Below are positions 30,001-36,000 of a stretch of 64,000 bases of DNA, in pieces. This DNA is from Chitinivibrionales bacterium (GTDB taxonomy: Bacteria > Fibrobacterota > Chitinivibrionia > Chitinivibrionales > WJKA01), in the NCBI GenBank assembly GCA_038247415.1, contig JBBRUX010000002.1, positions 32,001-96,000 on the forward strand. The letters run 5' to 3'. Position 1 is the first letter of the stretch. Every line of letters begins with the position of its first letter. The position numbers were made by a program.

Positions 30001-33000
30001 TAAAGCAGGTGGTGTTACTATCTCATCGATGGTGAATAACTTCTTAAAAACTGTCCTAAAGTATGACAGAATGTTCTATCTCTTTGCAAATCATTTTATT
30101 TATTAACAATTCAAAATAATGCAATGTTTATATCTTCATAAGATATTATGTTTTAATACTATACAACTTTTGTAATAATATTTTTTATTTTACTGATTCA
30201 AATTTCACTGACGATTTTCTTGCTTTTTTTTCCAATTATGGATATATTACTAACGCACCCTTAATTACGACAATTCATGTGAGCACGTATCTTTTACTTT
30301 AAAATAGATATGGGAGGGCTGTTCATCTATGCAGTTACCCAAGTCCAGACGTCGCCAAAAGCTGCGGGAAAAAACATGTCAATATCCGGGCTGTGGAAAA
30401 ATTTTCTTTGGTATTCATATTTCAAAGTATTGTCCCGAACATCGTCAAGATAGATACCGAATTCGCAAGCGCACTAAGCCCGAAGACGTTAACATCAAGA
30501 ATCAGACCTATAAGCATGCTTATACTGAAGTTGTAACAATGGTCATGACGTGCTCACTTGAAGGGTGCGATAATCAATTTGAAGTTAAGATTTATCCGCG
30601 GCAATATGTTTATCCAAAATATTGCCCCACGCATCGAAATGAGTATAAGCGTATTCGACACCTGCAGCAGATCGGACGCGAAGATCTGATCGAACAAATG
30701 AAACAGGAAAGCGAAATGGCCGAGCTAGAAATCGGCGATAAAGAAATAGAAGCTGACCTGCCAGAAGCAATTACCGATGTAGCATAATTACATTCTGATT
30801 TGTTTTTTTTAAAGGGAAAGCATATGCTTTCCCTTTTTTATTTGTGCAGAGAATATTTTTATTCATAACGCCATACTCATTTAATCACCTGGAGACTCGC
30901 CATACCAATGAAGACTACAGACTATGAAAGCATAATGAGCAAAACGGTTCCTGGTGTTGATCGTTTTATGAAAAAGACTTTTTCTAAAGTAGAAATTTCC
31001 ATCGAAGACGAGGAATTGCTTAAGAAAGTGTCTTCAGGGGCCTCGCTTATTACCTGCACCCATCGCAGCCATTGTGATTATTTTTTGCTGGGTGAGCTTT
31101 TATGGAAAGAAAAATATTTTTCTAATATCCGCTTTGCCGCTGGTGATAACCTAACCACGCTTCCTATTTTAGGCCAAAAATTTCTTAATTGGGGTGCCTT
31201 TCCCGTTTCACGCGATAGAGCTAACGATCGAAATTACATCCTTGAATTATGCAACCAATCCGTTGAAATGCTCGAACAAAAGCAAAATATCATTGTTTTT
31301 CCCGAAGGCGGGCGAAGTTACAAAGGAGAAATGCTCGAAATCAAGCAAACCCTTTTGGGCTCTGGTGTATTGGCTCAATCTCGTAATCCAGACAAAGATT
31401 TTTATTTTGTTCCCGTTGCTATATCGTATGAACAATTACCAGAATTACTTTATTTTAAAACCGTAGAAGACGGTAAAAAACTTCGCAAAGACGGCAAAGG
31501 TTGGTGGGATGCATTAAAAGGCAACGCTCTCTATTTTGGAGGTGATCTTTATGCCTTTGGTAAATTTCTTTTCGCCCATCGATTTCATAAAAACTATGGA
31601 CGCGTGTATGTAGATATTGGTAAACCAATTCTTATTCGCGAAGCGGCCGATCTTATAACCCTTTTTAATCCAAAAGCCCCCAACGAATTTTGGGGACACA
31701 GAACTGCCCTTAAACAGATTGCCGCTCAACTGAGAACGACGCTCCTTTCTCTGTATCGAATCCTTCCTCACCATGTGGTAGCGTACCTTATTATCAAAAA
31801 AGGGTGCTCATCAAAACACTCCTGCTTTGTTGCAGCCGAAGGCATTGTCGACCAGATCATAACTGCTGGGCTTAATACAAAAACGCTTTCATCACTTACC
31901 ACACGCGAGATTATTACTCAAGGACTATCCCTGCTCTCTATCATGAAAGGCATTCGCCTTCACAATGATGCTCTTGAAACACTAAACCCCGATGTAATTT
32001 CGTATTACTCTCAAACTCTTATTCCTCATCTTGTGGAGCAACAATAATGCCGTTTCACCAATACCTCTCTCTTCCTACGGCAGTTGAACTCGAGAGCACC
32101 GATAAAATTTCTGCCATTAGTGAACTTATCTCAATCCTTTGCAAAGCAGAGGGCATCAAACGCCCAAAATCTATTGTTGCAGAGGTTCTTAAACGTGAAG
32201 AATCATCGTCTACCTTTATAGGAATGGGCATTGCAATTCCACATACGCGCGGTGCAATTAAAGATGATTTTGCCATTCTCATTGGGCGAAGTATCGAGGG
32301 CGTTAATTTCGATGCAGCTCGGGGAGCATTAGCTCATATCATTGTTCTGGTAATAGGCAACCAAGACGAAACAGATTATAGCAAACAAATTCTTTTGCTC
32401 TCCGAAATTGCCTCATGTTTTAAATCCGAAATTGTGCGCGATCAAATATTAAGCCATAAAGTTCCCGCAGATGTTAAGGCGATTATATCATCCTTCATGC
32501 TTTCGAGTAGTACATTCGATCTGCGTGGCATAAGTAAATCTACTTCAAAGATATCCGATCCTGTTCTTTCGGCCGCATCGGGACTTGCAAAAGATATCAA
32601 AGCTGCTGCAATTTTTATTTTTGCCGATGCTGTTTTAGAAAACGATTTTATCGATAAGCTTCGCGTTAAGCAAAATATTGTTGTAGTCTCTAGTGTTAAA
32701 ACGCGATTCGATCCAGAAGACAAACGAATAAAAGCATGCATACAGGCCCCGCCATTTCTTTCTTCTCGCACCGGGCAATTAAAAATTGGTGTCCTTTTAG
32801 CACTCTCACGCAATCTGATTTCCAAAGAAGATCGTATAGTTTGCATCAGTGGTAACTCTAAAAGTGGTGAACTCGATACAATTGTTGCCATCGATATTGC
32901 GCGTGAATACGAATTCTACTTTACAACACCACAAACGGTTTTGCCTCCCGATGTAGAACCTGGTGTTCTAGAACGCATTCTTGGACTTGCAGGTGAAATA

Positions 33001-36000
33001 GCAGTGGAAGGCCGTGAAGGTAGACCTACAGGGACAATTTTTGTGGTGGGTGATACCAACACGGTTAATTCTCATGTACGGCAGCTCATTATTAATCCTT
33101 TTAGAGGCTATTCAGAGGCCGAGCGCAATATTATGGATCCCGGCCTCGACGAAACCATCAAAGAATTCGCCTCTATAGATGGTGCCTTTATTATCACCGG
33201 AGATGGTATTGTTCTCTCTGCTGGCAGCTATCTACGCCCTCTGGCCGACATTGACAACCTCCCGAGTGGTTTGGGCACACGGCACACCGCTGCCGCTGGA
33301 ATAACCGCCTGCAGCAATGCTTTGGCCATAGCAGTTTCGGAATCTACCGGTGCCATTACCCTCTTTAAAAATGGGGCGGTTTTATTATCTCTTTCTAAGC
33401 CTGTTATGTATGGCAAAGGAGTTCTTCCTCGAATAAACATGCAATAGATTGATTTTTAAAAAGTTACAATCCTATTTTACTAAATTTTACTACAATTATC
33501 AAAGGAATAGTTCATGGCACAGGCTCGTATTACCTTCGACGACAAAACCCTCTCCTCTGTCATTCAACCTTCTGAAATTGCTGCATTTGCCGAATCTATT
33601 GCAGCCGCAGAAAAAATGCTTGCAGATAAAACGGGCCTTGGTTCAGATTTTCTTGGCTGGCTTAATCTTCCTCGAGAAACAACCGACGCTACACTCGAGG
33701 CAATCTCTGCCAAGGCTGCCGACCTTCGCGCAAAAGGCGATATCATGATTTGTATTGGGATTGGTGGTTCGTATCTTGGATCTAAAGCTGCGCTGGAATT
33801 TCTTGGATCTACTTTCGACGACCAACGTAAACCTCGGGTTATCTTTGCTGGTCACAATCTCAATTCCGATTATCTTGCCGATTTATCAGATCTTATTGCA
33901 ACCCGCGATGTTGTTGTAAACGTTATTTCAAAATCGGGAACAACCACCGAACCGGGTGTTGTATTTCGTATTATTCGCTCGTGGATGGAAAAAAAATATG
34001 GGCGCAAAGGTGCTGCAGAACGAATTGTTGCAACAACCGACCCTGCAAAAGGCGCTCTTCGTAAACTTGCAACCGAAGAAAGTTATGCCACGTTTCCTAT
34101 TCCTTCTGATGTGGGGGGAAGATTTTCGGTTCTAACTGCAGTTGGTTTGCTTCCTATCGCCTATGCGGGAATCGACATTAAAAAACTCATTAAAGGTGCA
34201 CAAGAAGCACAATCTTTTTGTAGCGGATCCGACCTTACTAAAAATATTGCTGCACGCTATGCAGTAACGCGTAATATTCTTTTGCGTCGGGGTAAAGTTA
34301 TCGAAATGATGGCAACCTTTCAACCTCAGCTTCATTTTATTGGCGAATGGTACAAGCAGCTCGCTGGCGAATCCGAAGGTAAAAACGAAACAGGTATTTT
34401 TCCTTCAGTTCTCGATTATACTACCGACCTCCATTCTCTTGGACAATGGATGCAGCAAGGTATTCGTAATGTTTTCGAAACCTTTATTCGCATTAAGAAA
34501 ACTCGTTCTACTCTTGTTGTTCCTCGCTTCGACCAAGATGATGATGGACTTAACTATCTTCACAACGTAAGCATCGAGGAAATTAACGAAAACGCTTACA
34601 AAGGAACACTGCTTGCGCATATGGATGGTGGCGTTCCTGCTGCAACCATTATTTGCGACGACAGAAGCGAAGAAACACTGGGTCAGCTGTTTTACTTTTT
34701 CGAAAAAACCATCGCTCTTTCTGGTTATATTCTTCGAGTCAATCCATTCGACCAACCTGGGGTAGAAGCATACAAAGAAAACATGTTTGCATTGCTGTCT
34801 AAAAAAGGTTTCGAAGCACAAGGTGAAATTCTTAAAGGCCGCCTCGCTAAATTAGGACAATAATACCTATGAAGTCATTTCGGGAAACACTCGAATTTAC
34901 TATTTCTACCCGGCGCGATTATATCAATATCACGCCGCGTGTAGAAGAAATACTTGCTAAAAGCGGTATTCAAGAAGGTTTATGCCTTGTCAATGCCATG
35001 CACATTACTGCAAGCGTCTACATTAATGATGATGAACCTGGTTTACTCAAAGACTACGACGATTGGCTCGAACACTTGGCTCCACATGCCCCGGTAAGCC
35101 ACTATCGCCACAATGGCTTCGAAGATAATGGCGACGCTCATTTAAAACGTCAAATTATGGGCAGAGAGGTTGTTGTAGCTGTTACAAAAGGGAACCTTGA
35201 TCTGGGCCCCTGGGAACAGATTTTTTACGGGGAGTTCGATGGTCGCAGGCCGAAACGCGTTTTAGTAAAAATTATCGGCGAATAAAGGAGTTGCTCGATG
35301 TCTCCTACGCTACGATTTATTCTCGAAGAGAGCAATTCTCCTGCATTCAATATGGCTGCCGATTCTTGGCTCTTTACCACGGCACACAAGCGAGAAGAAA
35401 TTGTTATCCGTTTTTATGGCTGGGATCCCGCTTCTATTTCTTTGGGGTATATGCAAAACCCAACACTGGATCTTGACCTTTCTGCACTGCGCACGCAAAA
35501 AATTGGTTTTGTCAAGCGCATTACCGGGGGAAGAGCCATATACCACGATACCGATCTCACCTATTCGGTGTCATTTTCCACGGCCCATGCAATGCTAGGA
35601 TCCACTATTCGCCAAACATACAAACTCATTGCGCAATGCCTTTGCAACGGACTTGCTCTTGGGGGATTAGAAACTAATTTTCATACCAAAGAAATCGATC
35701 CACGCGCAGTACGATCCAATACAAAATTGCCCTGTTTTTTGGCTCCTAACCGTGATGAAGTAATGGTTGACAATAAAAAGCTTATCGGTTCAGCTCAAAA
35801 ACGAGGAAGTCCTGGTGTTTTGCAGCACGGGTCTATTCCCCTTTCAATGGCTTTCGCGCAACTTCCCGATTTTCTTTCGATATCAAACGAAGAGCGCACT
35901 GCGCAAAAAAAACTTCTAATTTCATCCTGTACCTGCATTCACGCGTCTGCACCATCTTTAACAAAAGATAAACTCGTTTCACTGCTGTGTACGGGATTTG

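Follow-up and report, generated by a model that had tools for sequence, protein, structure and literature searches.

An EIIA domain fused to a DacZ-type diadenylate cyclase in Chitinivibrionales and other bacteria: a candidate PTS input to c-di-AMP synthesis

The window analysed here, a stretch of 64,000 nucleotides from a member of the order Chitinivibrionales, includes a gene in which a PTS_EIIA_2 domain precedes the two domains of the c-di-AMP synthase DacZ. It raises the question of whether the phosphorylation state of the phosphotransferase system (PTS) could set c-di-AMP synthesis within a single protein. The EIIA_2-DacZ_P-DAC fusion had been claimed in an earlier note on this DNA, and the length of the ORF and the Pfam ranges of the three domains proved identical to those reported (Table 1). 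The positions are window coordinates; nothing of the size of this ORF lies at 47-1447 of the window. The PTS_EIIA_2 (PF00359), DacZ_P (PF21755) and DAC (PF02457) matches scored 80.8, 40.5 and 82.5 bits against cut-offs of 27, 27.4 and 27, with E values of 1.2e-22, 2.6e-10 and 2.2e-23, respectively, and no membrane domain was detected in the fusion by Pfam. The product is best explained as a putative cytoplasmic DacZ-type c-di-AMP synthase with an N-terminal EIIA of the fructose/mannitol/nitrogen class.

Table 1. Features of the fusion gene and its surroundings, in window coordinates.
Feature	Position	Strand	Basis and remarks
Terminator-like hairpin behind the preceding ORF, 11-bp stem then T run	30811..30836	+	
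PlsB/GPAT-like acyltransferase, 379 aa	30908..32047	+	Pfam
EIIA_2-DacZ_P-DAC fusion gene (P0001)	32047..33447	+	ATG ORF, 466 aa, Pfam
PTS_EIIA_2 domain	32086..32493	+	Residues 14-149, Pfam; fold matches PtsN structures, TM 0.82
His66 codon, predicted phospho-acceptor in GIAIPH	32242..32244	+	Motif reading, family alignment
DacZ_P domain, probable sensor, pyruvate-kinase C-terminal-like	32563..32922	+	Residues 173-292, Pfam, Foldseek
DAC (diadenylate cyclase) catalytic domain	32998..33378	+	Residues 318-444, Pfam
DGA motif of DAC	33178-33186	+	Residues 378-380
RHTAA motif of DAC	33280-33294	+	Residues 412-416
Glucose-6-phosphate isomerase (pgi)	33514..34863	+	Pfam; 66 nt 3' of fusion
UPF0047 (YjbQ-like) gene	34869..35285	+	Pfam; 5 nt after pgi

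The motifs named in the earlier note, GIAIPH with His66, DGA and RHxxA (here RHTAA), were read in the protein and are kept in an alignment of 75 representatives of the family, which are 26-58% identical to the query fusion. D378, G379, R412 and H413 are invariant in this alignment. His66 is kept in 72, Arg50 in 70 and Glu51 in 74 of the 75 sequences, and each of R50, E51, A63, P65 and H66 in at least 90%. The R-E and A-x-P-H residues of a phospho-acceptor EIIA are represented in the fusion by R50, E51 and H66, and its C-terminal part has the DacZ-type architecture, with DacZ_P directly before a DAC that carries DGA and RHxxA. The second active-site histidine of EIIA, which we take to be equivalent to His120 of E. 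coli PtsN and His111 of EIIA-Mtl, is replaced by Gln114. Among the 75 relatives this position is occupied by His in 49, Tyr in 13, Phe in six and Gln in three, and the histidine is present in the other three EIIA_2 domains of the genome.

The AlphaFold model of the fusion has a pLDDT of 90.8 and a pTM of 0.85, the linker at residues 150-170 being its sole weak part, and Foldseek matched it to PtsN, CdaA/DisA and pyruvate kinases. The nearest solved structures to the EIIA domain are PtsN proteins (2a0j and 3urr, TM 0.82). However, the fusion did not reach the cut-offs of the PtsN equivalog models (TIGR01419, 32.4 bits versus 138.7; NF008145, 22.7 versus 221), and its best NCBIfam EIIA model was that of the fructose IIA domain, at 62.9 bits. 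Hence, the label 'Ntr-type' previously attached to this EIIA is not established. With the NCBIfam DacZ equivalog NF041371 the fusion scored 132.5 bits, below the model's threshold of 430. As the name of this model (Diadnylcyc_Halo) suggests that it was built on halobacterial DacZ, the low score speaks against orthology to the halobacterial proteins but not against the architecture.

Orthologues were identified in 74 of the order's 81 genomes and cover all 9 families (best match E <= 1e-113, 46-67% identity), which bears out the near-universal occurrence of the full-length fusion proposed earlier. In 69 of the 74, one match covers residues 5-452 or more (67 without internal stops and two with one in-frame stop), and the other five were split by contig ends or frameshifts. 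In the search of the 81 genomes, no match to the fusion was obtained for G020-G023 and G030, while G028 yielded only a contig-end fragment and G051 only a paralogue. The fusion is nevertheless no speciality of the order. N-terminal EIIA fusions made up 82 of the best 150 clusters formed at 50% identity, and the same architecture was found in at least four other phyla, namely Verrucomicrobiota, Spirochaetota, Planctomycetota and Kiritimatiellota (Pontiellaceae).

In a tree of the DacZ core, the N-terminal fusions and the unfused forms part at one branch, by one change (SH-aLRT 84-86), and the fusion studied here falls in a bacterial clade. A further protein, P0176, has the reverse domain order, DacZ_P-DAC-EIIA_2, with an AIPH motif of its own, and is nested within an unfused Planctomycetota clade (98* in the same tree). 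Given this position, EIIA has been joined to DacZ at least twice.

The genome (96.2% complete) was searched with profiles for further PTS components and cyclases. Four complete enzyme I genes, each with its N, mobile and C domains and one also with a GAF domain, and four EIIA_2 domains were found, as counted earlier; besides that of the fusion, the EIIA_2 domains include a free one and one fused to a CNNM-CBS ion-transporter-like protein. The count of two HPr proteins did not hold, as one match scored 99.6 bits and the second only 25 bits over profile positions 20-79, without the His motif. Only one HPr looks functional by sequence. The reported lack of EIIB, EIIC and HPr kinase was reproduced for the families searched, with no match over cut-off to PTS_EIIC (PF02378), EII-Sor (PF03609), EIIC-GAT (PF03611), PTS_IIB (PF02302), PTS_EIIB (PF00367) or Hpr_kinase_C (PF07475); PF13303, PF03613, PF03830, PF03612, PF03610 and PF00358 lie outside the scope of the permease search. 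As enzyme I and a single good HPr are encoded, and no PTS permease of these families was found, the PTS of this organism can only signal. Across the order, HPr was found in 78 and EIIC in two of 81 genomes, and 18 carriers of the fusion from other phyla all encode HPr and enzyme I, with EIIC in one. HPr was likewise found in 22 of 24 genomes whose DacZ is unfused, so that co-occurrence with HPr is not discriminating.

A second DAC gene, of the CdaA-YbbR type and absent from the earlier note, is located on contig C22, and the fusion therefore cannot alone set c-di-AMP in this organism. In 40 of the order's 81 genomes, no DAC-domain match was obtained other than that in an EIIA-DacZ gene. The original idea of a regulatory phosphorelay acting on c-di-AMP is strengthened by the conservation of His66, Arg50 and Glu51 and by the reverse fusion, though not as sole control.

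DAC domains work as head-to-head dimers, and the known DAC regulators GlmM, the CdaS helices and RadA hinder this pairing. In regulators of the MtlR/LicR type, EIIA_2 is a cis-regulatory phospho-acceptor. The reading favoured here, to which a probability of about 0.6 is assigned, is that a phosphate chain from enzyme I through HPr to His66 sets c-di-AMP synthesis in cis. Enzyme I would be phosphorylated by PEP and would phosphorylate HPr, which in turn would phosphorylate His66 of the fusion. The phosphorylation state of EIIA would then change, in cis, the ease with which two DAC domains pair head to head and, as catalysis needs this pairing, c-di-AMP output would track the state of the relay. 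DacZ_P probably adds a second, small-molecule input. Phosphotransfer to His66, the PEP/pyruvate read-out, the effect on cyclase activity and the sign of the regulation are the steps that we infer.

The EIIA domain could instead be a structural or a ligand- or partner-binding module with its phosphorylation irrelevant. Such a role would fit the loss of the second EIIA histidine and the features of DacZ_P, which is common to fused and unfused forms, carries an SGxLDT-like loop in which G269 and D277 are nearly invariant in the family alignment, and structurally matches pyruvate-kinase C-domains. In pyruvate kinase, this fold binds fructose-1,6-bisphosphate, according to Braun 2019 (PMC6741144). 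This role is nonetheless judged unlikely, as it is hard to see, if phosphorylation played no part, why the phospho-acceptor histidine and its R-E partners would be kept in 70-74 of 75 sequences across phyla, AIPH is retained in the reverse fusion of independent origin too, and enzyme I and HPr occurred in 18 of the 18 carriers tested.

A bifunctional protein, with an EIIA that acts outward like free PtsN, binding and controlling other proteins (ion transporters, for example) in line with its phosphorylation state, and a cyclase that is largely independent or merely localised near the targets, appears less probable still. PtsN works by binding to other proteins, among them TrkA, KdpD and YcgO, PtsN proteins are the closest solved relatives of this EIIA, and another EIIA_2 of the genome is itself fused to the CNNM-CBS protein. 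Against this, the pTM over all three domains suggests a fixed arrangement in the model and no free-swinging EIIA, the joining of EIIA to this cyclase core on two independent occasions points to direct coupling, and a free EIIA_2 is already encoded for outward signalling. There is little to recommend a catalytically dead DAC in a nucleotide-binding receptor, or a chimera of assembly or gene calling, given the invariant DGA and RH motifs, the unbroken frame in 67 genomes of the order and in named records of other phyla, and the conserved operon context.

The signals that switch c-di-AMP synthesis on and off are among the least understood aspects of a well-studied messenger, and the fusion has a recognisable and assayable input, a histidine predicted to be a target of HPr, built into the cyclase. 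The conservation of this histidine across phyla, the origin of the fusion on at least two occasions and its status as the sole detected cyclase in about half of the order make control of the cyclase by the phosphate chain directly testable with purified proteins. If true, such control would tie the carbon/nitrogen status that the PTS senses to the ion and osmotic homeostasis under c-di-AMP control in Fibrobacterota, Verrucomicrobiota, Spirochaetota and Planctomycetota, phyla in which, to our knowledge, neither the PTS nor c-di-AMP has been studied. A wider proposal, put forward tentatively and with the odds against it, is that DacZ-type synthases in at least four bacterial phyla take their main physiological input from the phosphorylation state of a permease-less PTS; this input would act in cis where the domains are fused and in trans, via a free PtsN-like EIIA, where DacZ is unfused and HPr is present. 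Were this so, PtsN and c-di-AMP, the two master regulators known for K+ and osmotic homeostasis, would physically form one pathway, a long-sought upstream signal for c-di-AMP synthesis would be named, and all c-di-AMP production in about half of the order would hang on a PEP-driven relay.

In enteric bacteria, the phosphorylation state of the PTS sets cAMP synthesis by adenylate cyclase through EIIA-Glc. The logic of PTS state acting on a cyclic-nucleotide messenger is shared, but that system uses EIIA_1 and not EIIA_2, another cyclase fold and another nucleotide, and acts in trans, whereas here the domains are joined. In the PRD-type regulators MtlR, LicR and ManR, EIIA_2 is likewise a built-in regulatory phospho-acceptor and not a transport part; their output, however, is a DNA-binding domain tied to a cognate sugar permease, while that of the fusion is an enzyme and the permease is absent. 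CdaA, with CdaR (YbbR) and GlmM, is likewise a DAC set by attached or partner modules, and the same genome includes a CdaA-YbbR fusion, but CdaA is membrane-anchored and takes inputs from the envelope and GlmM with no phosphorelay, unlike the fusion, which is without a Pfam-detected membrane domain. PtsN governs K+ homeostasis, as does c-di-AMP in other bacteria. The PtsN of the EI-Ntr/NPr/PtsN system has in common with the fusion the fold, the R-E...A-x-P-H motif and a permease-less PTS with HPr and a GAF enzyme I; it acts in trans, whereas the EIIA of the fusion, which falls below the PtsN model cut-offs and has Gln for the second active-site histidine, shares one polypeptide with its presumed target.

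The same core, a pyruvate-kinase-C-like DacZ_P followed by DAC with DGA and RHR motifs, makes up DacZ/CdaZ (DacY) of Haloferax volcanii and Methanocaldococcus jannaschii. The fusion differs in its extra N-terminal EIIA_2, its 132.5 bits versus 430 for the equivalog and its place in a bacterial clade. The family is also present in some bacteria according to Braun 2019 (PMC6741144), where neither PTS nor EIIA is mentioned. The EIIA-DacZ architecture may already be catalogued in the two published lists of DAC architectures.

The genetic context of the fusion was compared among 30 loci of the order. The acyltransferase gene, the TAA stop codon of which overlaps the ATG of the fusion (TAATG), lies directly upstream in all 30, and pgi is found downstream in 26. 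On gene order, acyltransferase, fusion and pgi are a predicted operon conserved in the order, and the hairpin listed in Table 1 likely marks the start of the transcription unit. Among the nine loci L046-L054, L052-L054 have no pgi match and L046 ends within pgi, and in the five others (L047-L051) the UPF0047 gene follows pgi.

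The ORF listing contained the 466-aa fusion frame, with an ATG start, at window 32047-33447 on the plus strand. The earlier note's instruction that 32,000 be subtracted from positions was misplaced, as the window is itself C2:32001-96000 and nothing comparable lies at window 47-1447. Its claim of an EIIA-DacZ fusion is borne out: the frame is well conserved and encodes three domains, and R50-E51, GIAIPH with His66, DGA (378-380) and RHTAA (412-416) can all be read in the sequence as described. The best NCBIfam match of the whole protein was the DacZ model (132.5 bits, cut-off 430), and by its architecture the fusion is a DacZ family member outside the haloarchaeal equivalog. 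As judged by its sequence, the N-terminal domain is a bona fide EIIA_2. The label 'Ntr-type' previously attached to it is not supported, since the score with the PtsN model (32.4 bits) is under the cut-off and below that with the fructose-IIA domain model (62.9 bits), which is likewise under its own cut-off. An AlphaFold model built from 75 relatives had a pLDDT of 90.8 and a pTM of 0.85, being weak solely in the 150-170 linker, and in Foldseek it matched PtsN structures (TM 0.82), CdaA/DisA catalytic domains and pyruvate kinases, one for each part. A structure search found no solved DacZ structure.

Features of the fusion protein, its surrounding genes and the related PTS and cyclase genes of the source genome (G000; C numbers are its contigs, L numbers retrieved loci)
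Feature	Position	Strand	Remarks
PTS_EIIA_2 domain of fusion	residues 14-149	+	Pfam E 1.2e-22, above curated cut-off
DacZ_P domain of fusion	residues 173-292	+	Pfam E 2.6e-10, above curated cut-off
DAC domain of fusion	residues 318-444	+	Pfam E 2.2e-23, above curated cut-off
Terminator-like hairpin, strong	window 30811-30836		5' of acyltransferase gene
PlsB/GPAT-like acyltransferase gene	window 30908-32047		TAA stop overlaps ATG of fusion as TAATG
pgi	66 nt downstream of fusion
UPF0047 gene	5-nt gap downstream of pgi
LplA/B-like ligase gene	12-nt gap downstream of UPF0047 gene
Radical-SAM gene	overlaps LplA/B-like ligase gene by 79 nt		follows ligase gene
CNNM-CBS-EIIA_2, ion-transporter-like	G000:C38:34940-36469 (L004:424-1950)		AIPH His and second His kept
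HTH_17-EIIA_2, putative DNA-binding regulator	G000:C68:10451-11158 (L002:1462-2166)		AIPH His and second His kept
Four enzyme I paralogues	G000:C35:1908-3602, C3:112945-114771, C9:54405-56693, C16:67679-69409 (L009-L012)
Convincing HPr	G000:C22:560-829		99.6 bits
HPr-like ORF, 105 aa	G000:C4:34394-34711 (L008:1483-1797)	-	25 bits, profile positions 20-79, no His15 motif
CdaA-like cyclase	G000:C22:49796-51211 (L005:1183-2598)	+	DAC, YbbR; hydrophobic N-terminus read by eye as membrane helices

When the whole fusion protein was used to query 81 genomes of the order, an orthologue was found in 74 of them and in all nine families (E <= 1e-113, 46-67% identity), which upholds the order-wide occurrence that had been proposed. 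Sixty-nine are single full-length matches, two of these with one internal stop; in the other five, contig ends or frameshifts break up the match. Genome G028 has a contig-end fragment, G051 carries only a paralogue, and the query had no match in G020-G023 and G030. In the rest of the phylum, the full-length fusion is present in just one genome of another lineage (G290, 37% identity), and in none of the 151 genomes of the phylum's largest family. A second full-length EIIA-DacZ paralogue, 30-35% identical to the fusion, is encoded by 13 genomes of the order (L126-L138; e.g. L126:3454-4764), and the A-x-P-H histidine and DGA are kept in 13/13, with a match to RHxxA by regular expression in 12/13. 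Five of the six paralogues placed on a tree group with Spirochaetota sequences (support 97), a position that suggests horizontal transfer, and the sixth (from G078) sits on a long branch among Planctomycetota fusions. By ORF layout, a 461-aa ORF adjoins the paralogue in five of the 13 loci; it is a UDP-glucose dehydrogenase by Pfam in the three scanned (L126, L128 and L136). A RelA_SpoT small alarmone synthetase neighbours the paralogue in two of the 13.

The fusion had been presented as a feature of the order, and this has to be given up, as the same architecture also occurs in Verrucomicrobiota, Spirochaetota and Planctomycetota. A profile-free exhaustive search of 1.84 billion representatives returned 339 clusters at E <= 1e-30, and architectures were tallied for the best 150 of these, with a sample of 24 confirmed by Pfam. 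The best 150 comprised 70 clusters of EIIA-DacZ_P-DAC, 12 of EIIA-DAC with a divergent middle, three of EIIA-DacZ_P fragments (incomplete proteins), 54 of unfused DacZ_P-DAC, 10 of DAC only and one with the reverse order DacZ_P-DAC-EIIA; by source name, the fused clusters came from Verrucomicrobiia, Pontiellaceae and Spirochaetota. Two other representative cluster proteins join the cyclase to further domains, P0241 to a phosphodiesterase-like part (DHH-DHHA1-DacZ_P-DAC) and P0224 to an FAD oxidoreductase (DacZ_P-DAC-DAO). Among the best 80 of 588 relatives found by scanning GTDB species genomes with a DAC-domain pattern, fused loci belonged to the order (9), Verrucomicrobiota (33, mostly Opitutaceae), Spirochaetota (6) and Planctomycetota (2), and 30 loci with unfused DacZ to Planctomycetota, Nitrospinota, Thermodesulfobacteriota and several records without a phylum name. 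When the DacZ_P-DAC core was used for a maximum-likelihood tree (81 rows, rooted at the midpoint only), one branch separated fused from unfused forms (SH-aLRT 84), and the same split was obtained in a second core tree of 64 rows (support 86). Judging from these trees, the N-terminal fusion is an old and widely spread subfamily and no invention of the order. The reverse-order protein P0176 (DacZ_P-DAC-EIIA_2) is nested in an unfused Planctomycetota clade in the second tree (support 98), and EIIA and DacZ have therefore become fused on at least two occasions.

The inventory of PTS components largely agrees with that reported earlier. A profile search identified four EIIA_2 domains in the source genome, namely those of the fusion, a free 155-aa protein, an HTH_17-EIIA_2 protein and a CNNM-CBS-EIIA_2 protein, and the four enzyme I (EI) genes are all complete, one having an N-terminal GAF domain. 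Two HPr had been counted, and only one of them, with a GIHARPA motif, is convincing; the other match is weak and lacks the His motif, and this HPr-like ORF is probably not a phosphocarrier. No match above cut-off was found in the source genome for PTS_EIIC, EII-Sor, EIIC-GAT, PTS_IIB, PTS_EIIB or Hpr_kinase_C, in line with the reported lack of EIIB, EIIC and HPr kinase. Across the order, HPr is present in 78/81 genomes and PTS_EIIC in 2/81. Hence, for the families searched, the reading of a PTS devoted to signalling is sound in this genome, which is 96.2% complete, and it applies to the order as well. Four EI against a single convincing HPr, with no permeases found, make an unusually EI-rich relay; four EI-N matches were also obtained in the Spirochaetota fusion carrier G298, of which two are short fragments lying side by side on a single contig. 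HPr and EI are each present in all 18 fusion carriers examined from other phyla and PTS_EIIC in one. Of 24 genomes in which DacZ is unfused, 22 likewise have HPr, so that its co-occurrence with the fusion is necessary and not diagnostic, and in those genomes regulation could take place in trans.

The fusion is not the only cyclase of the source genome. A CdaA-like protein of 471 aa with a DAC and a C-terminal YbbR domain, which the earlier note did not mention, appears to be a CdaA-CdaR fusion. With this protein as query, the type was found in only 31/81 genomes of the order. DAC domains number none in four genomes (G020-G023), one in 42, and two or three in 35. The single DAC belongs to the fusion orthologue in 39 of the 42, to the paralogue in G051 and to the CdaA type in G028 and G030, and the sole DAC detected therefore follows an EIIA domain in 40 of the 81 genomes. 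The four genomes with no DAC are half of the eight in the small-genome genus g14 and are 68-91% complete; a sublineage may have lost c-di-AMP signalling here, or sequence may be missing. Neither a ydaO/c-di-AMP riboswitch nor a PgpH 7TM domain nor a DarA/PstA receptor was found in the source genome. A DHH-DHHA1 homologue at G000:C8:37043-37804, 28% identical over 255 aa to the N-terminal part of P0241 (E 7e-18), is a possible c-di-AMP phosphodiesterase.

The best-supported model, to which a probability of about 0.6 is assigned, is that a relay from EI through HPr to His66 tunes DAC pairing in cis, with DacZ_P as a second input. PEP would phosphorylate EI, the phosphate would pass to HPr and from there to His66 of the EIIA domain, and the phosphorylation state of EIIA would alter the head-to-head DAC pairing required for catalysis; DacZ_P would contribute metabolite sensing. 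We infer phosphotransfer to His66, an effect on the cyclase and its sign; what the analysis itself shows is the architecture, the intact conserved sites, the recurrence of the fusion, an upstream relay that is in place and, for the families searched, a lack of permeases. A complex prediction that paired the HPr of this genome with fusion residues 1-155 scored 0.01 without controls and speaks neither for nor against binding.

Residue conservation, counted in 75 fused representatives 26-58% identical to the query, bears on the alternatives. His66 is kept in 72/75, Arg50 in 70/75, and Glu51 and Pro65 in 74/75 each, and an EIIA domain that works independently of phosphorylation, leaving control to DacZ_P alone, is considered unlikely. 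Where EIIA(Ntr/Mtl) typically has a second His, the fusion has Gln114; only 49/75 relatives carry His there, and the three other EIIA_2 domains of the genome retain it. Its loss in the fusion would be in keeping with an acceptor at the end of the relay, from which no phosphate is handed onward. A PtsN-like EIIA that acts outward on other targets, with the cyclase independent of it, is judged quite improbable. D378, G379, R412 and H413 of the DAC domain are invariant, and a dead enzyme or artefact can be given very little credence. The reading of the gene as chimeric or miscalled was dropped, the same frame running without internal stops in 67 genomes of the order.

Braun et al. 2019 (PMC6741144) united DacZ and DacY/CdaZ in one family, found 'also in some bacteria', with an N-domain resembling the C-terminal domain of pyruvate kinase, and the words PTS and EIIA do not occur in that paper. 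According to a 2023 review (PMC10249747), the role of the N-domain of the DacZ family is unknown, and the classification of DAC proteins was revised by Galperin 2023, a census that defines 22 DAC families according to a 2026 paper (PMC12901056). A full-text literature search, beyond the reach of which lie the published censuses of DAC architectures, met with no paper in which an EIIA-DAC fusion is discussed or tested. It is likely that the architecture has already been catalogued, since a domain-architecture census is where such a fusion would appear. Automated annotations (JGI, NCBI) see both halves, and NCBI names the protein either 'PTS sugar transporter subunit IIA' or 'diadenylate cyclase'. 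The EIIA-DacZ proteins are most aptly classed with the DacZ enzymes, as a variant that is new or at least uncharacterised. Some weight is taken from the finding because the fusion occurs widely and has probably been catalogued, a second cyclase is present in this genome and the steps of the mechanism that go beyond the sequence are putative. The value of the finding is that it puts forward, for several little-studied phyla, a concrete upstream signal of c-di-AMP synthesis that can be tested.

The gene neighbourhood was compared across the order at 30 loci outside the source genome, where the acyltransferase gene adjoins the fusion in 30/30 and pgi in 26/30; the UPF0047 gene is likewise 3' of pgi in five of nine loci from GTDB records of the order. 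In a locus comparison, the acyltransferase and pgi context was absent around the fusions of other phyla, where the neighbours (primase, NuoA, Mrp-like and others) are all housekeeping genes particular to a lineage and no partner is common to the loci. One metagenomic gene call, P0121, is a single 714-aa protein with the architecture Acyltransferase-EIIA-DacZ_P-DAC. The sequencing runs listed for this DNA comprise six of DNA, all metagenomes, and none of RNA. The window also encodes, a few kb ahead of the operon of the fusion, a Crp/Fnr-type regulator (cNMP_binding and HTH_Crp_2; window 26493-27119, plus strand) and a Dabb stress-response barrel protein (window 29633-29935, minus strand).
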